A stretch of DNA of 12,548 nt from a virus. Its lineage: Duplodnaviria; Heunggongvirae; Uroviricota; Caudoviricetes. Location of the stretch: positions 1-12,548 of IMG/VR virus record IMGVR_UViG_2778261640_000001; one strand, 5' to 3'. Both the position numbers and the translations under genes were made by a program. This document shows positions 672 through 12,548 of this stretch, piece by piece; the first letter of the stretch is position 1, and each line of letters opens with the position of its first letter. A model generated the notes under the pieces. It did not search any database. It was not told where the DNA came from and saw only the letters and a list, made by a program, of their open reading frames with translations.

Positions 672-975
672 GAAAAAAATTTTTTTTCGAAAGAACTGTT
701 CACACTGTTCACCTTTCTTTTTTCTCCTTTTATTTCAGTATGATAGGTGGTGAATAATGGGTGAAGGGTGAACATTCGATTCTTCACCTCCGGCATTCTG
801 CCGGTGTGACTCATACCGGTGATTAATCCCCCGTACTAAAAATCGCACAGGGAGAAAAAAGTTTTTTTTGATTTGATTGTTCACACTGTTCACCTTTCGT
901 TTTTCTCTTTTAATTTCAGTGTGATAACGGGTGAATATACGGTGAAGGGTGAACAGTGGATTGTTCACCTTCGGG
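672..975. repeat. crr: crr-like cis replication region: two ~120-bp direct repeats (672-792 and 852-975) separated by ~60 bp, each carrying TGTTCACC / GGTGAACA octamers
   Basis: Hand alignment shows the two copies nearly identical (ctgttcacactgttcacctttc ... atttcagt.tgata ... ggtgaagggtgaaca ... ttcacct). This matches the recalled P4 crr layout and sits immediately downstream of the alpha gene. Confidence 0.75.
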
Positions 976-988
976 GGATTCAGGGATG

Positions 989-1012
989 AAAAAAGACCGG
1001 CAGATGCCGGTC
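989..1012 (-). terminator. Rho-independent terminator of the leftward (alpha) operon
   Basis: On the minus strand an 8-bp inverted repeat GACCGGCA/TGCCGGTC (995-1012) is followed by six T (989-994), 17 nt after the alpha stop codon. Confidence 0.65.
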
Positions 1013-1028
1013 AGATGAGTCATGAGGG

Positions 1029-3362
1029 TCAGGTTGTTGCAGGGTCGTCACATTTTGGCAGCCAGTCGCCGTAGCTTTCCTCTTTCAGCGTCAGGTTGGT
1101 CTGTATCCCCTGTTTGGTATGGCGCTTCTCGTAATTCAGCCCGTATTCCTTCAGCATCACCGGCAGCCCCAGCCCGAACATTTTCAGACTGAGTACATTC
1201 CGGTAGCCGTTTGCCTCCATGTAGGCCAGATAGGCGTGATAGAGGTATTTACGGTAGTTACGCGGGATGATACTGGCGTTCCCCATATACATGCCGCTGG
1301 TCTGCGGCAGGGTTTCCAGATAGCCGATAAAATCAAACGTCGGGTCGGCATCCCGTTTGATGTTCAGTGCCTCGTCTGAGTTCTGCTGGGACTGAAGCAG
1401 TGACCGGGCGAGCATCGGGTCGCTGAACTTCTGCATCAGGTGACGCACGATGACCGCCAGCTCGCGGGTGATTTTGTCCTTAAGCTGCGGGTCGCGCTCC
1501 TGCGGGGCTATCTGTTCCGGGAAGTGAATAATCACCCGCCGGCGTGACACGCCGCCGCTGCGGTCGGTGAAGCGCATCGGGTTATTGTTGACGGCCAGAA
1601 TCACCGCCGGGATATGCGTGGAGTACGCATCCCGGTATTTCGGGTCAACGGACACCGCATCGCCGCCGGTGATGGCCTTGAGTCCGGCTCCGTCGCCGCT
1701 CCATTTTTCCTGGTCCGGCAGGCGTATCAGTGAGAAGCCAGTTAACGCGGCACGTTCACGCGGGGATTCCAGCGTCTCGATGGTGGCCGACGTGGCGTTA
1801 TCCTCCCCGGCCAGCAGGGTGGCTATTTCGGCCATGATACTTTTGCCGCTGCCGCCGGGACCGGTCACCTCCAGAAAGAGCTGCCAGTCGTAGCGGTTTG
1901 CCAGCACCATAAACAGTGCGGCCAGAATCACGTCGCGTTTTTCCGCACGACCACCGGCGGCACGGTCAAGCCAGCGCCAGAACGCGGGAGCGTGGGTTTC
2001 CAGCGTTTCCCCTTCCACCGGCGGGGTGAAATCCACATCGCACAGGGTGCGCATCCAGTGTGACGGACTGTGCGGGTGGAACGAGCCGTTCTGCGTGTCG
2101 AGCACGCCGTTACGAAAGCCAATCAGGCGGCGGGAGGGGGCTTCCTGCTGCGGAATAATCAGCTTCAGGGTGTCCACCACGGAGGCCACCTTCCCGGAGG
2201 AGAACGGCGCGCGCAGCCGCTGAAACAGCCCGGCCACATCCCGGGCAAAGTCCTGTGGTGGCAGCACCTTCCAGACACCATTTTCATAGCGGGACAGAAG
2301 CTGGCCGTTGGCATCGACCGCGAGCGCCTCGCCGTAATGCTCATAGATACGCATGGCCTTTTCGCTGGTACTCATGGCGGAAAACTCCGCTTCGCTCATG
2401 GTGTCGAACGGGCTTTCAGCCGGTGGCCGGATGGCATCATAAATGGCCTTACGGGTGGCTTCCCCGCCGTACTGCGTGAAGGCATCATTCCAGTCACCGA
2501 AGACCGGCGGCAGGGCAACAACACCTTCACACGCATCTGCGGCTGCGGCGGCTTTTGTCTGGCCGTCACCGCTGAGGTCACGGTCAGCAGCAAGGACAAT
2601 CTGACAGGCCGGATGCTTCTGCCGGGCAAGGCTGGCCAGAGAAAGGAGGTTCACGGAAGAAAGCGCCACCATCACCGTTTCACCGGTCAGGTGATGTACG
2701 GTAAGTGCGGTCGCGTATCCCTCCGCTATCCACAGACGTTTTCCGGCCTGATTCTGTCCTTCAAGGGTGTGACAGGTGCCCCTGACCTGTCCGCCTTTCA
2801 GGGTGCGCTTACGGCCGTCAGCACTGATTAACTGAAGGTTAACCAGTTCGCCGCTGTCGTCATACAGTGGCACCACAAGGTCACCGGCGCGCCAGCTCAC
2901 GCCACCGGCTCTGTGTGTGCCGGTCAGCATCCGGCATTCCCGGCCGGGAAAGCCCTTGCGGGTCAGGTAGGCGTTACCGGTTCCGGGACGGGTTTTCGCC
3001 ATCAGGGTTTGTGCCAGTGCGGCGGCGTTCTTCCGGGCGGCTTCTGTTTCAGCACCGGCGGCAGCCGTCACTGCCGGGTCAGCCGGGGGCAGACTGCCGG
3101 TCACGGCAGCCACCTTTGTGGCCGCGTCGGACGGGGAAACACCAAACACCTTTTCAACCAGTTTCAGGCCGTCACCGGCACCACACTGATTGCAGTACCA
3201 GGTGCCGCGCCCCTCCCTGTCATCAAAACGGAAGCGGTCACTCCCGCCACAGACCGGACAGGGCTGATGACGGTTTTTCAGCACCTGAATCCCCAGCGCC
3301 GGGAGAATACGCGGCCAGTGACCGAGCGCATGGCTGACGGTGGCGGTTACGTTCATTTTCAT
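1029..3362 (-). CDS. alpha: P4 alpha-type primase-helicase / origin-binding replication protein
   Basis: 777-aa ORF. N-terminal zinc-ribbon primase signature (CPVCGGSDRFRFDD ... WYCNQCG), a Toprim-like acidic stretch (LAADRDLSGDGQ), Walker A GPGGSGKS and a long C-terminal domain. AGGAG sits 9 nt upstream of the ATG. Length equals recalled P4 alpha. Confidence 0.9.
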   Translation of the reverse strand: MKMNVTATVSHALGHWPRILPALGIQVLKNRHQPCPVCGGSDRFRFDDREGRGTWYCNQCGAGDGLKLVEKVFGVSPSDAATKVAAVTGSLPPADPAVTAAAGAETEAARKNAAALAQTLMAKTRPGTGNAYLTRKGFPGRECRMLTGTHRAGGVSWRAGDLVVPLYDDSGELVNLQLISADGRKRTLKGGQVRGTCHTLEGQNQAGKRLWIAEGYATALTVHHLTGETVMVALSSVNLLSLASLARQKHPACQIVLAADRDLSGDGQTKAAAAADACEGVVALPPVFGDWNDAFTQYGGEATRKAIYDAIRPPAESPFDTMSEAEFSAMSTSEKAMRIYEHYGEALAVDANGQLLSRYENGVWKVLPPQDFARDVAGLFQRLRAPFSSGKVASVVDTLKLIIPQQEAPSRRLIGFRNGVLDTQNGSFHPHSPSHWMRTLCDVDFTPPVEGETLETHAPAFWRWLDRAAGGRAEKRDVILAALFMVLANRYDWQLFLEVTGPGGSGKSIMAEIATLLAGEDNATSATIETLESPRERAALTGFSLIRLPDQEKWSGDGAGLKAITGGDAVSVDPKYRDAYSTHIPAVILAVNNNPMRFTDRSGGVSRRRVIIHFPEQIAPQERDPQLKDKITRELAVIVRHLMQKFSDPMLARSLLQSQQNSDEALNIKRDADPTFDFIGYLETLPQTSGMYMGNASIIPRNYRKYLYHAYLAYMEANGYRNVLSLKMFGLGLPVMLKEYGLNYEKRHTKQGIQTNLTLKEESYGDWLPKCDDPATT

Positions 3363-3376
3363 GGTGTTGTTCTCCT

Positions 3377-3697
3377 TCAGTGCAGTACCGGCGCTTTTAT
3401 GTGACGGGCACAGAGTTCATCCATCACAACCAGCCCGAGAAAGGACAGCGACGGCGCGGCCTTCAGGGGGCCGGATTCCATTAAATCTTCCAGCAGGGCA
3501 CAGGCTATCTGACGCCCTTTTTCCTCACCGTGCTGGCGCAGATAAAAGCCTTCCAGCTCAGCGGCGATGGCCGCCTCCAGTGATTCAAGGGTGAGATGCG
3601 GGTAGCGGTGCTGACGTTCGCACACGGTCAGCCAGGCACAGGCGACAGCACGACGGTAAAGGGCTGCGCGTAAGACGGGCGGTAAGGGTGTTTTCAT
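3377..3697 (-). CDS. cnr: Cnr-like copy-number regulator (P4 orf106 equivalent)
   Basis: 106-aa ORF immediately upstream of alpha in the same operon, with GGGAGG 7 nt before the ATG. Position and length match recalled P4 cnr. Confidence 0.7.
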
Positions 3698-3832
3698 TTG
3701 CTTTCCTCCCTGTGACAGATGACTGCATTCCGTGCCGGTTGCATTAACTGATAAGGCATATCTGCGTCTCCTGAAGACGTGCGTATCCCTGCGCGAATAC
3801 GCACATTTAATTTTTCGGGGGTCGTTTTTTAA

Positions 3833-4288
3833 TTACAGATAATTGCGGTAACTGTTATCCGGGGTGGTTTCCGGGTCAGGCTCCATGCGGGGAATTTCCC
3901 GCCATTCCCGCGCCACCGGTGCCGCCCGGCTGACCGGAACAGGGGCCTGCGGGTAAATATCCAGATATTTTTCCCGCCATTTCTGTAATTCCGGGTCTCC
4001 GGCCATTTCTTTCAGTACCGCATGCCGGTTTACGGGGCTGCGTTTAAACAGGTCAGGACGGTCACAGGTAAATTCCCGCAGAAAACGCCCCAGCGGGATG
4101 TCTGTGGTGCGCCCGTCAGCGAGGATACGCACAAGGATACTGAATTTACGGCGGTACGGGTTCCAGACAATGTCCGGGCAGCGGTACGGCATTTCCCACG
4201 GAATACCGTCTTCCAGAATGCCGACCACGGCCACATCGGGAAAACCGGCAGAACGGTAAATCTCACCGGGCTGGGGAAAATCAAACAT
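3833..4288 (-). CDS. P4 orf151-like protein, function unknown
   Basis: 151-aa ORF with GGGGAGA upstream of the ATG. Its ATG overlaps the last codons of the upstream epsilon-like ORF, suggesting translational coupling. Length and position match P4 orf151. Confidence 0.65.
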   Translation of the reverse strand: MFDFPQPGEIYRSAGFPDVAVVGILEDGIPWEMPYRCPDIVWNPYRRKFSILVRILADGRTTDIPLGRFLREFTCDRPDLFKRSPVNRHAVLKEMAGDPELQKWREKYLDIYPQAPVPVSRAAPVAREWREIPRMEPDPETTPDNSYRNYL

Positions 4289-4568
4289 GCGTCCTGTCTC
4301 CCCGGTCTTTCTGCTGGGCGAGAAAATCGCGGCACAGGCCTTTGGCTTTCAGCTCATTCAGCACAAAATCAATATCTTCATTCAGGTAGCTGAAAATATG
4401 CGGAATGTAGAGCTGATGCAGGCCGGAGAGTTCACGGTGAATCAAATCACCCCCAACAAACTGGGATACGGCGCTGGCGCGGTTGAGCTTATGGTAAGCC
4501 TCAATGCTGAGGTGTTCACGGGCGTCATGACGCGCTGAGACGGTCTGAGGGGCTTTTTTATTACGCAC
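4281..4568 (-). CDS. epsilon: epsilon-like protein (P4 antirepressor position), 95 aa from a GTG start
   Basis: GTG at 4568-4566 is preceded by GGTGGTGGAGGTG and overlaps the kil stop. The track's longer 147-aa version would overlap kil out of frame and lacks a ribosome-binding site. Confidence 0.55.
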
Positions 4569-4758
4569 GGGACACCTCCACCACCGGCAGACGGGCAGCA
4601 AGGGAGAGCACATAGTCACGGACAAGGGAACGGCGGGCGCTGCGTTCATCACCGGCGACGGTGCGAAGCATACAGATACGGGGATGACGGTCTGCGCGAC
4701 GGACAGCCGCAAACACAAAGACAAATTCAGGGTGTGAGGGGGTAAGGGTTGTAGCCAT
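4561..4758 (-). CDS. kil: Kil-like 65-aa peptide, first translated gene downstream of PLE
   Basis: ATG at 4758-4756 is preceded by GGAGG at an 8-nt spacing and gives exactly 65 aa ([12 protein letters not shown]...VVEVSRA) to the TAA at 4563-4561. This is the 3' part of the longer eta frame. Confidence 0.6.
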
Positions 4759-5160
4759 GATGGCAGCCTCCGTTAGATAGCAGGTTACGCTATCGCCGGA
4801 GTTCTCACGCTCAATGGCGATAGCCCAGACGGGGGTGAGAATACCGGCTCTAACGGATACCGGCCAGCCCGGAGGCTGCCCCGCCTGAGCTACCATTGAC
4901 TCTGCGGCATAATGAGCGGACGCGGGCAGGATGCACGGAATGCCATCTGCACGACTGACCACACACCACACCATAATCTGGCGCTCTGTGGCGTTGATTG
5001 CGACACAAAAAAAGACGCATGGCGCGTCATATGTCGCCGTTAGATTGCTCGGGTTCTCACGCCCGGCTGCCGATTTTGCGGCAGCGGAAAAACTATATCC
5101 GCAAATGCCGGAAAAAGGCAAGCCAGAAAAAGGGACTTTTTGCAGAGCGGGCATCATCAT
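4561..5160 (-). CDS. eta: eta-like ORF (about 199 aa), same frame as kil, starting upstream of PLE and spanning the cI/seq region
   Basis: The in-frame ATGATGATG at 5160-5152 overlaps the vis stop. Starting at 5160 gives 199 aa. The frame stays open across seqA, the seqB region and seqC. The track's upstream start at 5205 lies inside vis. Confidence 0.4.
4770..4810 (-). promoter_or_regulatory. seqC-like target, complementary to seqB; overlaps the kil ribosome-binding site
   Basis: Minus strand reads gcgtgagaactccggcgatagcgtaacctgctatctaacgg. Its ends (gtgagaa ... tctaacgg) are complementary to the seqB candidate. Confidence 0.55.
4812..4900 (-). ncRNA. cI: CI-RNA-like immunity RNA; boundaries approximate, seqB core at 4835-4856
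   Basis: Minus-strand ccgttagagccggtattctcac (4856-4835) is complementary to both flanking elements. Exact ends cannot be set from sequence alone. Confidence 0.35.
5037..5062 (-). promoter_or_regulatory. seqA-like target, complementary to seqB, in the PLE leader
   Basis: Minus strand reads gcgtgagaacccgagcaatctaacgg, sharing gtgagaa and tctaacgg with seqC, both complementary to seqB. Confidence 0.55.
5092..5121 (-). promoter_or_regulatory. PLE-like sigma70 promoter of the leftward operon
   Basis: Minus strand -35 TTGCCT (5121-5116), 18-nt spacer, -10 TATAGT (5097-5092). The start would lie about 25 nt upstream of seqA. Confidence 0.5.
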
Positions 5161-5423
5161 GCGTCGTACCCCCGTTTGCGTCCGGCAATGCGCCCGGCCA
5201 TCCATGCGGTGACTTCTGAGTGCAGCCAGGCCACATTTTTACCGCCAAGACTCACCTGCGGCGGAAATTCCCCCTTACGGATGAGTTCATAGATGGTCGA
5301 GCGTGACAGGCCGCACAGGTGCATCACTTCCGGCAGACGTAAAAAACGCTCCTGCGTGATGTCCGGCAGCGGCATCAGTGGCGTCACAGGGGCGGGAGAC
5401 GGGGAAGAAAAAACAGCTTGCAT
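5157..5423 (-). CDS. vis: Vis-like AlpA-family helix-turn-helix regulator / excision factor
   Basis: 88-aa ORF with an AlpA-type motif ([44 protein letters not shown]). GAGG sits 8 nt upstream of the ATG. Length and position match P4 vis. Confidence 0.8.
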
Positions 5424-5525
5424 CGGGCTACCTCGTTAATGTCCATACAGCACCGGATAAGTCCGTCCGGCTTCGGGTAGCGCTTTATTTTGTGAATATT
5501 TTCAGCAGACGCAACAGGGGGGATT

Positions 5526-5543
5526 TGTTCCGGCAGCCTTACA
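5526..5543. promoter_or_regulatory. TGT-N12-ACA dyad, an Ogr/Delta-type activator site, upstream of vis (PLL-like late promoter)
   Basis: TGT (5526-5528), 12 nt, ACA (5541-5543), centred about 110 bp upstream of the vis ATG. Confidence 0.45.
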
Positions 5544-5570
5544 ATGCTTGTGTGTTTTTTGTTCATCTCC

Positions 5571-5600
5571 ACTTAAAGTCATTTAAAGCCACTTAAAGCA
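5571..5600. repeat. Three tandem 10-bp repeats (acttaaagtc / atttaaagcc / acttaaagca)
   Basis: Read directly between the PLL-side dyad and the ori iterons. Function unknown. Confidence 0.5.
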
Positions 5601-5702
5601 ATTCGTAATTTTTATAGTGAAATACAAATCGTTTTTTCTTATTCATTCCCGGCGAATTAATAAAAACAAACAGTAATAAACAGCACAAAAAGCCCATCAA
5701 CG

Positions 5703-5807
5703 GGTGAACAGTGGTGAACAGACGGTGAACAGTCATTACTGCGATTGTTCACCATTTAACTTACTGTATTACTTATCTTTTTTCTTATGGTGAACAGAGG
5801 TGAACAG
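5703..5807. other. ori: ori-like replication origin: six TGTTCACC-type iterons in direct and inverted orientation
   Basis: GGTGAACAG at 5703, 5713, 5724, 5789 and 5799, plus inverted TGTTCACC at 5746, the same octamer as in crr. Flanked by AAACAAACAGTAA direct repeats (about 5665 and 5821). Lies about 4.9 kb from crr. Confidence 0.7.
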
Positions 5808-5885
5808 TAAAATATAAAAAAACAAACAGTAAGCCGGTTTTTCCTGCGACCTTTTCCTGGCTTGCCGGTGTGAGGATGAGTCTCC

Positions 5886-5903
5886 TGTGTCAGGGCTGGC
5901 ACA
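5886..5903. promoter_or_regulatory. TGT-N12-ACA dyad, an Ogr/Delta-type activator site, of a Psid-like late promoter
   Basis: TGT (5886-5888), gtcagggctggc, ACA (5901-5903), centred about 80 bp upstream of the sid ATG. Confidence 0.55.
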
Positions 5904-5974
5904 TCTGCAATGCGTCGTGTTGTTGTCCGGTGTACGTCACAATTTTCTCAACCTGAAGTGACGAGGAGCCGAAA

Positions 5975-6709
5975 ATGTCTGACAACACCATCCCTGAATA
6001 TCTGCAATCCGCGCTGGCACAACTGGAAAAGGCCAGAGCCGCCCATCTTGAGAACGCCCGTCTGATGGATGAGACCGTCACGGCCATTGAACGGGCAGAG
6101 CAGGAAAAAAATGCGCTGGCGCAGGCCGACGGAAACGACGCTGACGACTGGCGCACGGCCTTTCGTGCAGCCGGTGGTGTCCTGAGCGACGAGCTGAAAC
6201 AGCGCCACATTGAGCGCGTGGCACGCCGGGAGCTGGTACAGGAATATGACAATCTGGCCGTGGTGCTGAATTTTGAACGCGAACGCCTGAAAGGGGCGTG
6301 TGACAGCACGGCCACCGCCTACCGGAAGGCACATCATCACCTTCTGAGTCTGTATGCAGAGCATGAGCTGGAACACGCCCTGAATGAAACCTGTGAGGCG
6401 CTTGTCCGGGCAATGCATCTGAGCATTCTGGTACAGGAAAATCCGCTCGCCAACACCACCGGCCATCAGGGCTACGTCGCACCGGAAAAGGCTGTCATGC
6501 AGCAGGTGAAATCATCGCTGGAACAGAAAATTAAACAGATGCAAATCAGCCTCACCGGCGAGCCGGTTCTCCGGCTGACCGGACTGTCAGCGGCAACACT
6601 CCCGCACATGGATTATGAGGTGGCAGGCACACCGGCACAGCGCAAGGTGTGGCAGGACAAAATAGACCAGCAGGGTGCAGAGCTTAAGGCCAGAGGACTG
6701 CTGTCATGA
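5975..6709 (+). CDS. sid: Sid-like external capsid size-determination scaffold
   Basis: 244-aa ORF, coiled-coil-like and rich in A/E/L/Q. GAGGAG sits 7 nt before the ATG. Length and position match P4 sid. Confidence 0.8.
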   Translation: MSDNTIPEYLQSALAQLEKARAAHLENARLMDETVTAIERAEQEKNALAQADGNDADDWRTAFRAAGGVLSDELKQRHIERVARRELVQEYDNLAVVLNFERERLKGACDSTATAYRKAHHHLLSLYAEHELEHALNETCEALVRAMHLSILVQENPLANTTGHQGYVAPEKAVMQQVKSSLEQKIKQMQISLTGEPVLRLTGLSAATLPHMDYEVAGTPAQRKVWQDKIDQQGAELKARGLLS

Positions 6710-7206
6710 TTTACTGCCCGTCGTGTGGACATGTTGCTCACACTCGTCGCGCACATTTCATGGACGATGGCACCAAGATAATGATTGCACAGTGCCGGAA
6801 TATTTATTGCTCTGCGACATTTGAAGCGAGTGAAAGCTTTTTCTCTGACAGTAAAGATTCAGGAATGGAATACATTTCAGGCAAACAGAGATACCGCGAT
6901 TCACTGACTTCTGCCTCCGGCAGTATGAAACGCCCGAAAAGAATGCTTGTTACCGGATATTGTTGTCGGAGATGTAAAGGCCTTGCACTGTCAAGAACAT
7001 CGCGGCGTCTGTCTCAGGAAGTCACCGAGCGTTTTTATGTGTGCACGGATCCGGGCTGTGGTCTGGTGTTTAAAACGCTTCAGACCATCAACCGTTTCAT
7101 TGTCCGCCCGGTCACACCGGACGAACTGGCAGAAAGCCTGCATGAAAAACAGGAACTGCCGCCAGTACGGTTAAAAACACAATCATATTCGCTGCGTCTG
7201 GAATGA
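6706..7206 (+). CDS. delta: Delta-like late-gene transactivator with two Ogr-type zinc-finger modules
   Basis: 166-aa ORF whose ATG overlaps the sid stop (ATGA). Two cysteine modules: CPSCGHVAH...CRNIYCSATF and CRRCKGLAL...CTDPGCGLVF. Confidence 0.85.
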   Translation: MIYCPSCGHVAHTRRAHFMDDGTKIMIAQCRNIYCSATFEASESFFSDSKDSGMEYISGKQRYRDSLTSASGSMKRPKRMLVTGYCCRRCKGLALSRTSRRLSQEVTERFYVCTDPGCGLVFKTLQTINRFIVRPVTPDELAESLHEKQELPPVRLKTQSYSLRLE

Positions 7207-7279
7207 GGGCTGTCGGTTAACACCGGCCGTCGCCGCACACCGTATTTTTATTCTTCAGCATGATGAGAAAGAGATAACG

Positions 7280-7852
7280 ATGGAAAGCACAGCCTTACAG
7301 CAGGCCTTTGACACCTGTCAGAATAACAAAGCAGCATGGCTGCAACGCAAAAATGAGCTGGCAGCGGCCGAACAGGAATACCTGCGGCTTCTGTCAGGAG
7401 AAGGCAGAAACGTCAGTCGCCTGGACGAATTACGCAATATTATCGAAGTCAGAAAATGGCAGGTGAATCAGGCCGCCGGTCGTTATATTCGTTCGCATGA
7501 AGCCGTTCAGCACATCAGCATCCGCGACCGGCTGAATGATTTTATGCAGCAGCACGGCACAGCACTGGCGGCGGCACTGGCACCGGAGCTGATGGGCTAC
7601 AGTGAGCTGACGGTCATTGCCCGAAACTGTGCCATTCAGCGTGCCACAGATGCCCTGCGTGAAGCCCTTCTGTCCTGGCTTGCGAAGGGGGAAAAAATTA
7701 ATTATTCCGCACAGGATAGCGACATTTTAACGACCATCGGATTCAGGCCTGACGCGGCTTCGGTGGATGACAGCCGTGAAAAATTCACCCCTGCGCAGAA
7801 CATGATTTTTTCGCGTAAAAGTGCGCAACTGGCATCACGTCAGTCTGTGTAA
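7280..7852 (+). CDS. psu: Psu-like polarity suppression / capsid decoration protein
   Basis: 190-aa ORF, last gene of the sid-delta-psu operon. Length matches P4 psu. Confidence 0.8.
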   Translation: MESTALQQAFDTCQNNKAAWLQRKNELAAAEQEYLRLLSGEGRNVSRLDELRNIIEVRKWQVNQAAGRYIRSHEAVQHISIRDRLNDFMQQHGTALAAALAPELMGYSELTVIARNCAIQRATDALREALLSWLAKGEKINYSAQDSDILTTIGFRPDAASVDDSREKFTPAQNMIFSRKSAQLASRQSV

Positions 7853-7888
7853 AATTCCCCGAAAATCCGCCTGTTTTTACTGAAAAAA

Positions 7889-7916
7889 GCCATGCATCGA
7901 TAAGGTGCATGGCTTT
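7889..7916 (+). terminator. Hairpin terminator candidate downstream of psu
   Basis: GCCATGCA (7889-7896), 9-nt loop, TGCATGGC (7906-7913), then TTTG. The T tract is short, so possibly a weak terminator. Confidence 0.45.
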
Positions 7917-8016
7917 GCATGCGTTTCCCTGCCTCATTTTCTGCAGACCGCGCCATTCCCGGCGCAGCCTGAGCGTGTCAGTACAACTGCATTAAAACCG
8001 CCCCACAAAGCGGGCG

Positions 8017-8052: not shown

Positions 8053-9675
8053 TTAATTTATTTTTTTATAAAGGCCATCTAACCCAGGTTTCAAAAGAAA
8101 TTGAGATGGAGCCCCGTTCTTAAGATCACCTGAACCATTATACCGTTTCGTAGAATGCATTAGCATAATGCCTTTTCTTGCTCGTGTAATTCCTACGTAA
8201 TGAAGATTTATGCATTGCTGTTCATTTTCGAATACAACATCATAGCTTCCTTCTATGAAAACTCTTTTAGGCAAAATCCAATCATACAGATCCAAATGAA
8301 AAACAAAGTCAAACTCAAGACCTTTAGACTTATGTAACGTCATTATTTGTACTTCATCACTTCTAACATCCAAATAATTATTTTGCATCCTCGGAGTAAC
8401 TAATATCTCTGAAAGAGCGGACTTATGATGCTGCTCGATTTCAGTCCCTAAAAGAGTTACTACAATTTTATTTATTACGTCAATAAGAAAGGCATCTGTA
8501 ACACTTCTAACCTGCTTAATAGCCTTACGGATACGAGTAGCCTCGCTCCTTTTGACACTGCTTCCCAAAACCCCCTCCAAAATAGACTGAGCAGTTTTAT
8601 TTAAGTTATACCTGTAACATAATAAATCATTAACAAGACCAGAAACCTTACCACCAGCCTTTGTTAAATCATTATCCAAATAAGCCCTATTAGAAACAAC
8701 TAAATTATCAGAAACTAGCTCCGCGCAAGCATTGCTTCTTACCAATATAGCAATCTCCTTATTATCAGATATTGAAAATTTATTTTTTACATTATCAAGA
8801 ATTTCACCAATCCATTTAGCTATATCAATTTGATTGCCATCAACACATTTTCTATAAACAAAAATCTCATCACACGGAGCTAGTTGACATTCAAAATCTT
8901 TAATTCTATTGGCGTAATTTACTATAGATGGGTGACATCTGTGATTTACTGTAATTTCCTTATGACAGAAACCACTATCATTCATGAAATCTTTTAGTGA
9001 ATCCGAACTGCGGTGAGAATACAAATAAATTGATTGATCCAAATCACCAACGATAATAAGAGGCATCCCTAGCGTTGGTATGAACTTGAAAACCTGATGA
9101 GTAAAATAACCGGTATCCTGATACTCATCGACAAAAAAACCAATATACTTTGCCATTAAATACCGCTGACAAGAATATGATGTTCTAACTATATAAAAAG
9201 CCAAGTGAGGAAGGAAGTCTAAAATCAACATCCCCTTTAAATAAATATCCCTCAGAGAACCCATGCCCTCAAATGAAGTATTAGAATAAAAATCCACTCG
9301 GTCAAAGTACTTATTTGTCTTATCTTTTAATTCTTGAGAAAGATCTATATACTTTACTACTTCGAGAGCGCTTTCGTTTCTGCCCCATACTTGCCTTACA
9401 AAAGGTAATATTATTTCGTTAATGAAAAACTTATCAATAGTACCAAAGAAGCTAGAATTTAACTCTGCTCCCAATTTTCTACATCTGGATTTTAGCTCCT
9501 CGCTGGATTTATTCGTATATGATAACGCAACAACTCCCTGATAATCCTTGGAATGGGATAAACAGGCAGCAATCTTATGGACGAGTATTGTTGTTTTACC
9601 ACTTCCTGGGCATGCAGTTATAACCAGATTACCTTCGTAATCAATTGCATCTAACTGTTCCTTAGTTAGCTTCAT
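8053..9675 (-). CDS. gajB: UvrD/PcrA/Rep-like SF1 helicase, GajB-like partner of a class 2 OLD nuclease
   Basis: 540-aa ORF with all SF1 helicase motifs read by eye: I ACPGSGKTT, Ia ALSYTNKSSEEL, II FVDEYQDT, III IIVGDLDQSIY, IV VNHRCHPSIVNYAN, V IMTLHKSKGLEFDFVF, VI YVGITRARKG. ATGA overlap with the upstream gene and GAGGTGA ribosome-binding site. AT-rich. Confidence 0.75.
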   Translation of the reverse strand: MKLTKEQLDAIDYEGNLVITACPGSGKTTILVHKIAACLSHSKDYQGVVALSYTNKSSEELKSRCRKLGAELNSSFFGTIDKFFINEIILPFVRQVWGRNESALEVVKYIDLSQELKDKTNKYFDRVDFYSNTSFEGMGSLRDIYLKGMLILDFLPHLAFYIVRTSYSCQRYLMAKYIGFFVDEYQDTGYFTHQVFKFIPTLGMPLIIVGDLDQSIYLYSHRSSDSLKDFMNDSGFCHKEITVNHRCHPSIVNYANRIKDFECQLAPCDEIFVYRKCVDGNQIDIAKWIGEILDNVKNKFSISDNKEIAILVRSNACAELVSDNLVVSNRAYLDNDLTKAGGKVSGLVNDLLCYRYNLNKTAQSILEGVLGSSVKRSEATRIRKAIKQVRSVTDAFLIDVINKIVVTLLGTEIEQHHKSALSEILVTPRMQNNYLDVRSDEVQIMTLHKSKGLEFDFVFHLDLYDWILPKRVFIEGSYDVVFENEQQCINLHYVGITRARKGIMLMHSTKRYNGSGDLKNGAPSQFLLKPGLDGLYKKIN

Positions 9676-11372
9676 AATTCACCTCTAGCAATTTTCAGTG
9701 CATGTATTAGAGGTCTGGCTATATCTTTGCTCTTCAGTTCAGTTAAAAAAGCTTTTTTCTCTTTAATTAACTCACGCATACGTATAGCTTTTTTTCCTCT
9801 CAAATAATCAGCGGCATCATCTAGATTATCCTTACTTGCATAATCAAGAACATGCTTCGAAAAGTCATTAGCAAGATCTCCTTCAAGATCAAAAAAAGAT
9901 ATATAAACGCCGTTAGGATTTATTATTGGTGAAATGGTTCCCCACTTAGTATGCAAAGCTTTACTATCTATAGGAATACTTGAGTTTGGTTCTTTATTCT
10001 CTCCACACAGTGCTAACGCCCTATTTACACCAGCATATTGCCATTCATTCTTATGAGGTACTTTTGAAGCATCATTGTCTGTTCTTACGATCCAATTAAT
10101 ATTTAGAGCTGTTAATATTTTTCTATAAACTTCAAATTGGATACCATCAACAGAAAGAATGCTGATGTTATAATAATCAAGATCAATACTTAATGCTTTT
10201 GCTAATTCAGTGTAAAAAATCACCTCAGATGGTCCCTCGACCAAAAAAACCACGTTAGCAAAAAATGCCTCAGCAGGAATAATACTCATCCGGTAGCCCA
10301 TTCCATCCCATGCAGAGCTAATACAATCAGAACATCCATTACTTGCGGCTAGAGTCTCTCCATCATCATAGTATAGTTTTATGATTGAATCAGGTTTAAA
10401 ATTCACTGCAATTTGGGGTGAGTGGCTTGTAACGATTGCTTGGCCTGGAAGTTTATCGATTAAATAGGCCGCCAATTTTCTTTGCTGGTGAGGAAATAGA
10501 TGTGCTTCCGGTTCCTCTATACAATAGATCACTACTTCACTTTCAACATCATGCTCGCGAACACTTTTTGCTTTCCATAACGCAAGAAGGATTTGGTTAT
10601 TAAACCCATCGCCACCAAGCATTAGTTTCTTCCCATTTGTATTCGCACTTAATTCTAATTTCTCTATAAACTGGTCAATCCCTATTGCACCAGTATCAAG
10701 TTGAACAGTTAATCTATCATGAGTATAGGATAACTTTCTAAGTTCCTCGTTAAGCTCTTCTGTTGCTGATGCAACATAACTTATTCCTTTAACTTTTTCA
10801 TTTACTTCAGTAAGTAGCTTATTTAATTCAGTAAAAACCGCCCCATCATTTTCAGTATCCTTTTCACTACGAACTTCTTGCGCCAATCTTAAAAGATGCT
10901 TCTTTTCAATTTTAATGTATTTTTCAAGATCTCTTTGCGAATTTATATACCTTAGACTTAAACACTTTAAGTAAAATCTATTAGGAACCTCATCAAAATT
11001 GTTATGTTCATGACTAAGTAATATCTTGTAATCCATAGTTAATGATGAAGCAAGATACTTAATGTATGTTTCCCCTTCATCGCTAACATACCCTCCTAAT
11101 TTAGATATTACAGCATCTTCACTAACATCTGTAAACTTGATAGTGATTTCTATATTTTCAACCTGTTCACCTGTCGAATTTACATGAAAGTCATTGCTTT
11201 TTGGTTCTAGATCTAATTCAGATAAACTTTTATCAAGTAATAATCGAATGGCATATAATAGGTTGGTCTTTCCAACATCATTTGCACCTATAATCAAATT
11301 AGTTTCATTAAAATTAATAACAGCATCACAGTAATTCCTGAATCCTTTAATATAAACAGTTTCAATTCTCAT
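9672..11372 (-). CDS. gajA: OLD-family ABC-ATPase plus Toprim nuclease, GajA-like
   Basis: 566-aa ORF. Walker A GANDVGKTN near the N-terminus, Walker B / H-loop (VVIYCIEEPEAHLFP ... IVTSHSPQ), C-terminal Toprim motifs (VVFLVEGPSEV, WIVRTDNDAS). The ATG directly follows the int stop (TAAATG). AT-rich. Confidence 0.75.
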   Translation of the reverse strand: MRIETVYIKGFRNYCDAVINFNETNLIIGANDVGKTNLLYAIRLLLDKSLSELDLEPKSNDFHVNSTGEQVENIEITIKFTDVSEDAVISKLGGYVSDEGETYIKYLASSLTMDYKILLSHEHNNFDEVPNRFYLKCLSLRYINSQRDLEKYIKIEKKHLLRLAQEVRSEKDTENDGAVFTELNKLLTEVNEKVKGISYVASATEELNEELRKLSYTHDRLTVQLDTGAIGIDQFIEKLELSANTNGKKLMLGGDGFNNQILLALWKAKSVREHDVESEVVIYCIEEPEAHLFPHQQRKLAAYLIDKLPGQAIVTSHSPQIAVNFKPDSIIKLYYDDGETLAASNGCSDCISSAWDGMGYRMSIIPAEAFFANVVFLVEGPSEVIFYTELAKALSIDLDYYNISILSVDGIQFEVYRKILTALNINWIVRTDNDASKVPHKNEWQYAGVNRALALCGENKEPNSSIPIDSKALHTKWGTISPIINPNGVYISFFDLEGDLANDFSKHVLDYASKDNLDDAADYLRGKKAIRMRELIKEKKAFLTELKSKDIARPLIHALKIARGEL

Positions 11373-12548
11373 TTACATTTTCCTTAAAAATAACGTTGAA
11401 GAGAAAAAGTTCAACATTTTCCTTCTTTCTTCAATGAATGTTGCATGATTATATGTACCGCGAATTCTATTACTATCAACGTGAGCGAGCTGTAATTCAA
11501 TATATTGAGAATTAAAGCCAGCATCATGTAAAATAGTTGACATCATATGCCTAAATCCATGACCTGTAAGCCTGCCACCGTATCCAAGTCGCTTTATAAG
11601 CTGATTGATAGCGGCCTCACTCATTGGCTTACTCGGATCATTTCGCCCAGGAAAAACATAACGATAGTTGCCTGTCATTGTCTTGAGTTCATTGAGTAAA
11701 TCTAACGCCTGAGTAGACAATGGCACAAGATGCGGCCTGCGCATTTTCATCCTTTCAGCAGGAATTTCCCAAATAGCGTTATCCAGATCAAATTCTTGCC
11801 ATAATGCCGCGCGTAATTCGATGGTTCTCACGCCCGTAATCATCAGTAATTTCGTTGCTATCTGGACAATTTTACTCCCGGTGTAACTCTCTAAGGCACG
11901 CAGAAATTCGGGTATCTCATCAGCTTTTAAGAACGGGAAATGATTGGATTGATGCACTTCGAGAGCGCTGGAGAGATCCGCAGCAGGATTGTACTCCGCC
12001 CTACCTGTTGCAATTGCGTAGCGAAACACCTCGGAGCAACGCTGCCGCACTTTACGCATTTTCTCCAACGCACCACGTTTCTCAATTTTACGCAGTACGT
12101 TCAGCAGCTCTAGCGGTTTAATCTCTCCCACAGGCCTTGTTCCAACATAAGGAAAAATGTCGTTCTTAAACGCTTCCATGATGTCTGATGCGTATCCAGC
12201 TGACCATTTAGCAGATTTAAGTTGATGCCACTCTCTGGCGATCTTTTCGAAGGCGTTCTCTGACTCTGTTTGCAGAGCCAGCTTTTGCTCTTTTCGAACC
12301 TCACTAGGGTTCTTTCCTTCTGCCACAAGTTTTCGAGCTTCATCACGACGGGAACGAGCATCGGCAAGGGTGATCGTTGGGTAAACGCCAAGCGAGATCA
12401 TCTTGGGTTTACCGGCGTAGCGATAGCGGAACCGCCAGCTCTTGCTTCCATTAGGTTCTATAAGCAATGACAAGCCTTGCCCATCCCCAAGCGTATAGGG
12501 TTTATCTTCAGGCTTAGCGCGGCGAATCTGCATATCGTTTAAAGGCAT
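11373..12548 (-). CDS. int: P4-type tyrosine integrase; ATG at the window edge
   Basis: 391-aa ORF. N-terminus MPLNDMQIRRAKPEDKPY is typical of P4-family integrases. The C-terminal catalytic region carries HGFRHMMST and LAHVDSNRIRGTYNHA with the likely catalytic tyrosine. Confidence 0.85.
   Translation of the reverse strand: MPLNDMQIRRAKPEDKPYTLGDGQGLSLLIEPNGSKSWRFRYRYAGKPKMISLGVYPTITLADARSRRDEARKLVAEGKNPSEVRKEQKLALQTESENAFEKIAREWHQLKSAKWSAGYASDIMEAFKNDIFPYVGTRPVGEIKPLELLNVLRKIEKRGALEKMRKVRQRCSEVFRYAIATGRAEYNPAADLSSALEVHQSNHFPFLKADEIPEFLRALESYTGSKIVQIATKLLMITGVRTIELRAALWQEFDLDNAIWEIPAERMKMRRPHLVPLSTQALDLLNELKTMTGNYRYVFPGRNDPSKPMSEAAINQLIKRLGYGGRLTGHGFRHMMSTILHDAGFNSQYIELQLAHVDSNRIRGTYNHATFIEERRKMLNFFSSTLFLRKM

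Follow-up and report, generated by a model that had tools for sequence, protein, structure and literature searches.

What does the stretch of minus-strand DNA at positions 4770-5121 do? This part of the window (the whole stretch of DNA analysed, 12,548 nt) holds a composite repeat written twice, with a segment complementary to both copies between them and a candidate promoter just upstream. Such a layout raises the question of whether the region is a working RNA-based immunity switch of the kind found in phage P4, and whether it carries the specificity of P4 or one of its own. We consider it very likely that the module is the RNA-based prophage immunity of a P4-like satellite residing in an E. 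coli chromosome, regulated in the style of P4. Homology, RNA family matches, structures, complementarity and the evolutionary maintenance of that complementarity were all established here and are set out below.

The element surrounding the locus is closely related to P4. Window positions 674-8016 match P4 4291-11624 at 98% identity, and the homologous part spans crr, alpha, orf106, orf151, eps, the immunity region, vis, ori, sid, delta and psu, ending at the cos end (8016). The core of a P4-like satellite was found (alpha, eps, sid, delta, psu, the cos end and an integrase, with Pfam Derepression, AlpA and integrase domains), the genes from int to alpha are all intact open frames, and the gene order vis-eta/PLE-CI-kil-eps-orf151-orf106-alpha is the same as in P4. 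Between the cos end and the integrase, a Gabija pair on the minus strand (GajB 8053-9675, GajA 9672-11372; PADLOC E values 3e-224 and 4e-261) takes the slot held in P4 by gop-beta-cII, which is the known P4 defence hotspot. The tyrosine integrase (11373-12548, minus strand, 391 aa) is unlike that of P4. In E. coli HUM3355, the nearest complete genome (99.4%), the element is flanked on one side by a truncated LysR-type gene adjacent to paoD and on the other by tRNA-Thr/proA; judged from this near-identical prophage, the predicted integration site is thrW rather than leuX. No tRNA gene was found inside the window, the start and end of which coincide exactly with gene boundaries (1-411 on the plus strand and the integrase at 11373-12548 on the minus strand). 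PLE, seqA, the CI RNA, seqC and a nested kil all lie inside the eta frame (Table 1).

Table 1 Features of the immunity region, in window coordinates.
Feature	Positions	Strand	Description
vis / alpA-type gene (P4 ORF88)	5157-5423	-	Pfam Phage_AlpA 7e-21; counterpart of P4p11
vis stop / eta start overlap	5160-5157	-	ATGA
eta reading frame, 199 aa	4561-5160	-	RefSeq CDS of 600 nt there; Pfam Phage_ASH
PLE promoter (predicted)	5092-5121	-	-35 TTGCCT 5121-5116, 18-nt spacer, -10 TATAGT 5097-5092; identical in P4
Leader hairpin 1	5066-5085	-	GCUGCCG-CAAAAU-CGGCAGC; isrK match start, fold, covariation
seqA, with hairpin 2 (CGGG/CCCG)	5037-5065	-	box 1 GUGAGAA 5060-5054, in loop
seqA box 2	5044-5037	-	UCUAACGG; single-stranded
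Intrinsic terminator (P4 t1)	5007-5028	-	GACGCG-CCA-UGCGUC + U7; terminator scan; 3' end of isrK-type short RNA
CI RNA gene (Rfam C4, RF01695)	4813-4900	-	basal stem 4894-4819 and two hairpins
seqB within CI RNA, whole	4835-4856	-	
seqB box 2'	4856-4849	-	CCGUUAGA; 12-nt loop of CI hairpin 2
seqB box 1'	4841-4835	-	UUCUCAC; single-stranded linker of CI RNA
Alternative hairpin	4789-4824	-	CI basal-stem 3' arm (4824-4816) with 4797-4789
seqC	4770-4808	-	box 1 GUGAGAA 4808-4802; box 2 UCUAACGG 4777-4770
kil, 65 aa, in the same frame as eta and nested in it	4561-4758	-	translation

On the minus strand, the composite GTGAGAA…TCTAACGG is present at 5060-5037 (seqA) and again at 4808-4770 (seqC). Between the two copies sits seqB, which reads CCGTTAGA followed by TTCTCAC and is the exact complement of both boxes of seqA and of seqC. 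A preliminary description of the locus had placed three mutually complementary elements here, and its coordinates proved exact. The pattern GTGAGAA-N(5-30)-TCTAACGG occurs three times in the window (two sense, one antisense) versus none in 200 dinucleotide-preserving shuffles, and TCTAACGG alone occurs three times versus 0.37 expected. The pairing that it had proposed between these elements was also borne out. All 15 of the 15 base pairs form between seqB and seqA, and likewise between seqB and seqC, with duplex energies of -25.2 and -28.4 kcal/mol, respectively; four shuffle controls gave means of -9.2 to -13.8 kcal/mol, and in none of them was any of 2000 shuffles equally strong. Cofolding of the CI RNA with the seqA leader and with the seqC region gave ddG values of -12.4 and -15.4 kcal/mol. 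When the whole 12.5 kb was scanned on both strands, the top sense-strand targets of seqB were seqC and then seqA. The remaining seqB duplexes near -24 kcal/mol, among them a strong one at 12391-12430 (plus strand) and a few similar, were set aside as chance matches, since they depend on a GCCGG core that is buried in the CI stem and do not contain the boxes. The candidate promoter that had been proposed just upstream, TTGCCT-18 nt-TATAGT, was recovered by a consensus scan as the sole sigma-70-like site in 4500-5600, and its -10 hexamer is annotated in the P4 record X02534. The t1 hairpin with its U7 tract (5028-5007) was the sole terminator-like site in the same interval.

The same complementarity was then followed in 80 loci anchored on alpha homologues in species-representative genomes, ranging from Escherichia-like contigs to Serratia, Pectobacterium, Pantoea and Yersinia (Enterobacterales). 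The leader was located upstream of the alpha homologue in nearly all loci, and 80 distinct leaders were aligned. Both boxes vary among them, with 7 box-1 alleles, 15 box-2 alleles and 33 combinations. Despite this variation in sequence, 99.2% of seqA:seqB cells and 99.0% of seqB:seqC cells are paired, with double changes in 12 of the 15 pairs; these counts use related sequences, so that cells are not independent events, which the many box alleles and the slid-register controls mitigate. Sliding the register by 1-3 columns lowered pairing to 36-49% and the covariation score from ~0.78 to 0.08-0.15, and none of 500 shuffles attained the observed pairing values. RNAalifold selected the seqA:seqB helices unaided. 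Column entropy is 0.92-0.97 bits in the boxes versus 0.31-0.34 bits in the rest of the CI RNA and the 5' leader. Different boxes are found on backbones that are 97-99% identical (P4, the window element and one further relative, L013) and the same box type on backbones of just 64-75% identity; box type is in part independent of backbone similarity. The complementarity of seqA, seqB and seqC is under selection.

That the layout is that of the P4 RNA immunity system, as the preliminary description had it, is confirmed by 97.3% identity to the immunity region of phage P4 over 1 kb together with matches to Rfam families. The C4 antisense RNA model (RF01695) matches 4900-4813 at full length (1-87) with 75.2 bits against a gathering threshold of 45 (E = 1.4e-13). 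The isrK model (RF01394) matches 5085-5008, spanning the seqA leader and the terminator, with 72.0 bits against 50, and the c4-a1b1 model (RF03163) matches 5098-5046 with 49.5 bits against 46.7. By this covariance model match the leader would be a member of isrK, an Hfq-binding RNA family. In the predicted CI fold, a 16-bp basal stem closes two hairpins (MFE -48.1 kcal/mol, z = -4.7) and seqB is exposed, with box 2' in a 12-nt loop and box 1' in a linker. The predicted leader fold places seqA box 1 in a hairpin loop closed by a 4-bp stem and leaves box 2 unpaired, 8 nt ahead of the terminator. The PLE transcript probably begins at leader hairpin 1, and the mature CI RNA would probably extend from about 4894 to 4826, by analogy with the 69-nt CI of P4.

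These structures are retained in the 80 relatives. The CI basal stem is 99.8% and CI hairpin 1 100% paired, with 7 covarying (double-change) pairs, and leader hairpin 1 is 99.8% paired with 2 covarying pairs. A G:C to C:G compensation at the base of the t1 stem occurs in 23 of the 80 relatives, and compensatory changes are found across the CI stems, both leader hairpins and the t1 stem. An alternative 9-bp hairpin (4824-4789, minus strand) shows box 1 of seqC in its loop; in the 80 relatives its pairing stands at 99.2%, 3 of its pairs covary, and RNAalifold recovers it as well. Since it shares the 3' arm 4824-4816 with the CI stem and both covary in the relatives, the CI stem and the alternative hairpin are mutually exclusive and co-evolving. 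The P4 reference (L001) reads CGCC at window positions 5084-5087 (minus strand) versus CCGC in the window and all other 78 relatives, and the first base pair of leader hairpin 1 is broken in the P4 record alone; the CGCC reading may stem from a mistake in early sequencing or from a change in the laboratory strain. Another complementarity, 11 nt long and perfect, was seen on the minus strand between CI hairpin 1 (4870-4880) and the kil ribosome-binding region (4762-4772). We rejected it as a part of the mechanism because it is uncompensated where hairpin 1 differs, with 9 relatives retaining 6 of the 11 pairs. Conserved in most relatives, it is probably not a selected pairing.

The specificity of the module was compared with that of P4 in a 681-nt alignment (98% identity). 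The few differences cluster in three 5-nt blocks, one in each element: CTAAC in the window versus TCACA in P4 in both seqA and seqC, and GTTAG versus TGTGA in seqB. An extra short patch of differences flanks seqC (4787-4772). Box 2 therefore differs from P4 at 4 of 5 core positions in each element with complementarity retained, and box 1 is unchanged. Complementarity is perfect within the window element and within P4, but not between them, and the window element does not carry the P4 allele, which would have identical boxes in seqA, seqB and seqC: its box 2 differs in all three. Of the two pairing boxes, one has been swapped in a concerted and compensatory manner. For box 2 by itself, the cognate duplex has a computed energy of -10.0 kcal/mol versus -0.6 and -2.5 kcal/mol with the P4 partners. 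Cofolding with the P4 CI gave ddG values of -6.5 and -9.8 kcal/mol versus the cognate -12.4 and -15.4 kcal/mol, so that the shared box 1 leaves P4 CI with roughly half of the binding energy computed for the cognate CI, and on this model some cross-immunity with P4 may persist through that box. Because box 2 is different at all three sites while box 1 is shared, the predicted specificity differs from that of P4, and we infer that the element is probably heteroimmune, its immunity specificity at least partly distinct. When IMG/VR was scanned for a pattern built on the invariant flanks, just two alleles turned up, that of P4 on 6 contigs and that of the window on 4; in every case the three sites had changed together. 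The leader is present in 1056 of 5426 complete E. coli genomes, in roughly 1,258 copies, and 67 records are at least 99% identical to the window.

Some genomes carry two or three P4-like elements, and their co-resident leaders always differ in at least one box and often share the other (sets include L017/L029/L042, L023/L055, L074/L076, L038/L039 and L073/L078); this sample is small, at about 10 genomes, with about 5% identical types expected by chance. In one locus from Mangrovibacter yixingensis (L066, 1-331), the seqA type differs from its own seqB and seqC and matches that of the co-resident L063 (1-337). Cross-regulation between the two elements was considered and rejected, since both loci start at contig ends and their first ~100 nt are identical; the mismatch is probably a repeat-induced assembly artefact.

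It is possible, though in our judgement somewhat less than probable, that P4-like satellites of Enterobacterales use the two boxes as a combinatorial 'address code' for RNA immunity, with diversifying selection for mutual non-interference and short-patch concerted change at the three sites. If this is true, the code would comprise at least 7 box-1 and at least 15 box-2 alleles, each written three times per element, in boxes whose variability is roughly threefold that of the remaining RNA; co-resident elements would share one box but never both, and the window element would lie one step from P4. Targeted literature searches found no systematic description of box diversity, and RNA immunity is not discussed in the survey of P4-like satellites that we examined. 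The two-box combinatorial picture may thus be undescribed at this scale.

The DNA that specifies these RNAs is also coding sequence. In P4, the constitutive promoter sits inside eta and CI is made by processing, Kil is a truncated form of Eta, production of full-length Eta depends solely on the upstream late promoter and is coupled to the alpA homologue, and termination is prevented by translation of Eta (PMC10111431). In the window, the 65-aa frame from 4758, after seqC, is kil, which on PLE transcripts would be the first gene to be translated. An earlier assignment of the ATG at 5031 as the kil start, with a short internal ATG as eta, was rejected since the 65-aa frame after seqC fits kil; it also goes against the account of P4, where eta is the long frame containing PLE (PMC10111431). 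Frameshifts in relatives had been expected as proof of a non-coding leader, but in 72 of the 80 the frame instead stays open all the way from the start of transcription to the ATG of kil. This fits eta, and the leader is therefore non-coding only in PLE transcripts; one stretch of DNA is both structured RNA and coding sequence. The term 'leader' used in the preliminary description accordingly holds for PLE transcripts, in which the region is untranslated, but not for late-promoter transcripts, in which the same DNA is the translated eta frame. Current annotation reflects the protein side: the RefSeq records (L093, L094) have no RNA gene here and name eta a 'host cell division inhibitor Icd-like protein', and NC_001609 retains a 'cI gene product (AA 1-137), transcriptional repressor', though it is an RNA that acts as the immunity factor. 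The Pfam Ash protein family (PF10554) match, found in the translation of 4561-5031, corresponds to residues coded by 4989-4723, which cover the CI RNA, seqC and the start of kil, so the conservation of this 'protein' family is partly RNA-driven.

How the module would work is carried over from P4 for CI processing, CI-dependent termination, silencing of alpha and superinfection immunity. In P4, premature termination results when a processed RNA base-pairs to seqA and seqC in the PLE transcript as it is being made (PMC4825925, PMC3632133, PMC10111431). The P4 CI is a substrate of RNase P (PMC5499578) and is processed by RNase P (and PNPase) to a stable RNA of ~69 nt (PMC5499578, PMC4825925). An acceptor-like stem is seen in the CI RNA of the window. 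The constitutive PLE (5121-5092) would fire leftward from within the eta frame, giving a transcript that begins with two hairpins, the second of which would show box 1 of seqA, followed by box 2 and the intrinsic terminator t1. Transcripts that pass t1 would hold a tRNA-acceptor-like cloverleaf, to be excised (at its 5' end by RNase P) as a stable CI RNA of about 70 nt. Release of the P4 CI by RNase P is followed by trimming at its 3' end. The two exposed stretches of CI that form seqB, box 2' in the loop and box 1' in the linker, would pair with seqA on nascent PLE transcripts and with seqC over the kil ribosome-binding site; this pairing would raise termination near seqA and block translation of kil. 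The sites of CI-induced termination in P4 are t1, another site and a Rho-dependent one downstream of kil. The untranslated RNA would then end before eps, orf151 and the alpha primase gene, leaving a quiescent prophage, and a superinfecting element of the same type would be repressed in trans, with the two boxes determining specificity. Transcripts begun at the late promoter further upstream would escape, as ribosomes translating eta, coupled to vis, traverse seqA, CI and seqC. We found no antiterminator that pairing at seqA would destroy: in a thermodynamic equilibrium model, t1 forms at 97-98% with or without seqA blocked. A simple antiterminator therefore does not explain the effect of seqA, which on this model would have to be kinetic, or to act via translation or Rho.

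Several features of the region could be read differently. The whole leader lies in a frame that is open in 72 of 80 relatives and matches a Pfam protein family (Phage_ASH), so the repeats might reflect protein-coding constraint in eta, as an internal Eta/Ash repeat, and not RNA-RNA recognition. This is extremely improbable, because a protein repeat cannot explain seqB as the reverse complement of seqA and seqC, compensation is seen at the nucleotide level (12 of 15 pairs with double changes at 99% pairing), and variability peaks in the box columns, where a conserved protein motif would show the reverse; here the DNA is under coding and RNA constraints at once. It is very unlikely that the module is a relic of a cryptic prophage, its RNA switch unused and its complementarity inherited from a recent P4-like ancestor. 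A history of this kind would suit the element, a chromosomally integrated prophage whose cargo region has been replaced and whose integrase is not that of P4. The genes from int to alpha are nevertheless all intact open frames, and the same allele, with a 99-100% identical leader, is found in at least 67 complete E. coli genomes and 4 IMG/VR contigs. The 15 + 15 box pairs are moreover perfect though box 2 has been rewritten relative to P4, which requires selection on the three sites.

Other readings leave the RNA pairing in place and alter its role. Control could be essentially translational, as in P1 c4-icd-ant, with CI masking the kil ribosome site, termination a secondary Rho polarity effect, and seqA and t1 dispensable. 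Box 2 of seqC indeed overlaps the kil Shine-Dalgarno sequence GGAGG (4771-4767), the P1-like D6, RCS47 and JL22 match the CI-seqC-kil stretch at 73-74% with a record that names the gene Icd-like, and the t1 hairpin forms whatever the occupancy of seqA in the thermodynamic model. We regard this as unlikely, however, since seqA covaries with seqB as tightly as seqC does (99.2% versus 99.0% paired), and seqA is thus under selection equal to that on seqC. It is doubtful, too, that the short RNA from PLE to t1 (5085-5008) serves a separate function, whether in trans as an sRNA resembling Gifsy-1 IsrK or as a decoy that titrates CI. Such a role is not reported for P4, the sequence does not separate a functional sRNA from a termination product, and a role of this kind would supplement the immunity mechanism, not replace it. 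In its favour are the full-length isrK family match (72 bits), the action in trans of the short form of Salmonella IsrK on the long isoform and the complementarity of IsrK to a downstream CI-like RNA that the authors remarked on (PMC4825925), and the requirement for an IsrK-like element of P4-like prophages in S. Typhi TraDIS (PMC3632133). RNA-based immunity of the P4 type remains our preferred reading.

For the most part this work bears out textbook P4 biology, in a prophage that RefSeq annotates without the RNA gene, and its practical value lies in annotation. The swap of one box on a backbone 98% identical to P4 is a clean natural experiment on specificity change in antisense-RNA immunity, and P4 and the window element form a ready pair for asking whether one box suffices for heteroimmunity. 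More widely, two-box diversity could explain the coexistence of several P4-like satellites per genome, and the box alleles could serve as orthogonal sets of RNA repressors and targets for synthetic use.

The system itself is already known, as P4 CI RNA immunity; the allele differs from that of P4 and may be new. All parts are found in the P4 immunity region (NC_001609, ~8370-8730) in the same order, spacing and sequence: the promoter, t1 stem, CI stems and box 1 are identical, whereas box 2, the integrase and the cargo (Gabija in the window versus gop-beta-cII in P4) differ. Single-case precedents for changed specificity (φR73; P1 versus P7) are old. According to Sabbattini et al. (1996, Virology 216:389, as cited in PMC7567579), the CI/seq determinants of the retronphage φR73 make it heteroimmune to P4, and on that description it is a natural P4 relative with changed RNA determinants and a precedent for the window element. 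In Salmonella Gifsy-1, the IsrK/STnc1160 family (RF01394) is matched end to end by the seqA leader and terminator of the window, and isrK and C4 have been equated with the 'seqA' and 'CI RNA' of P4 (PMC3632133); the trans-activating role of IsrK was shown there, not for P4. The CA RNA anti-immunity module of the N15-like phages phiKO2 and PY54 has a CI region 77-84% identical, recovered as a partial match, and its RNA is of the same family as the window CI. The IsrK and CA RNA modules both belong to complete temperate phages, where what they gate is an antirepressor or antiterminator instead of the primase operon of a satellite. The c4 RNA of P1 and P7 (immI, with targets a1/b1 and a2/b2) belongs to the same RNA family as the window CI by covariance model, and the CI-seqC-kil stretch of P1-like phages is 73-74% identical to that of the window. 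The logic is the same, with a processed RNA, two exposed boxes, one upstream target and one downstream target over an icd/kil-type ribosome site, and specificity is fixed by a few bases, as in the P4-type system. In P1, however, this RNA controls the ant antirepressor and the protein repressor C1 is the main immunity factor, whereas in P4-like elements the RNA is the sole immunity factor and controls the replication operon.
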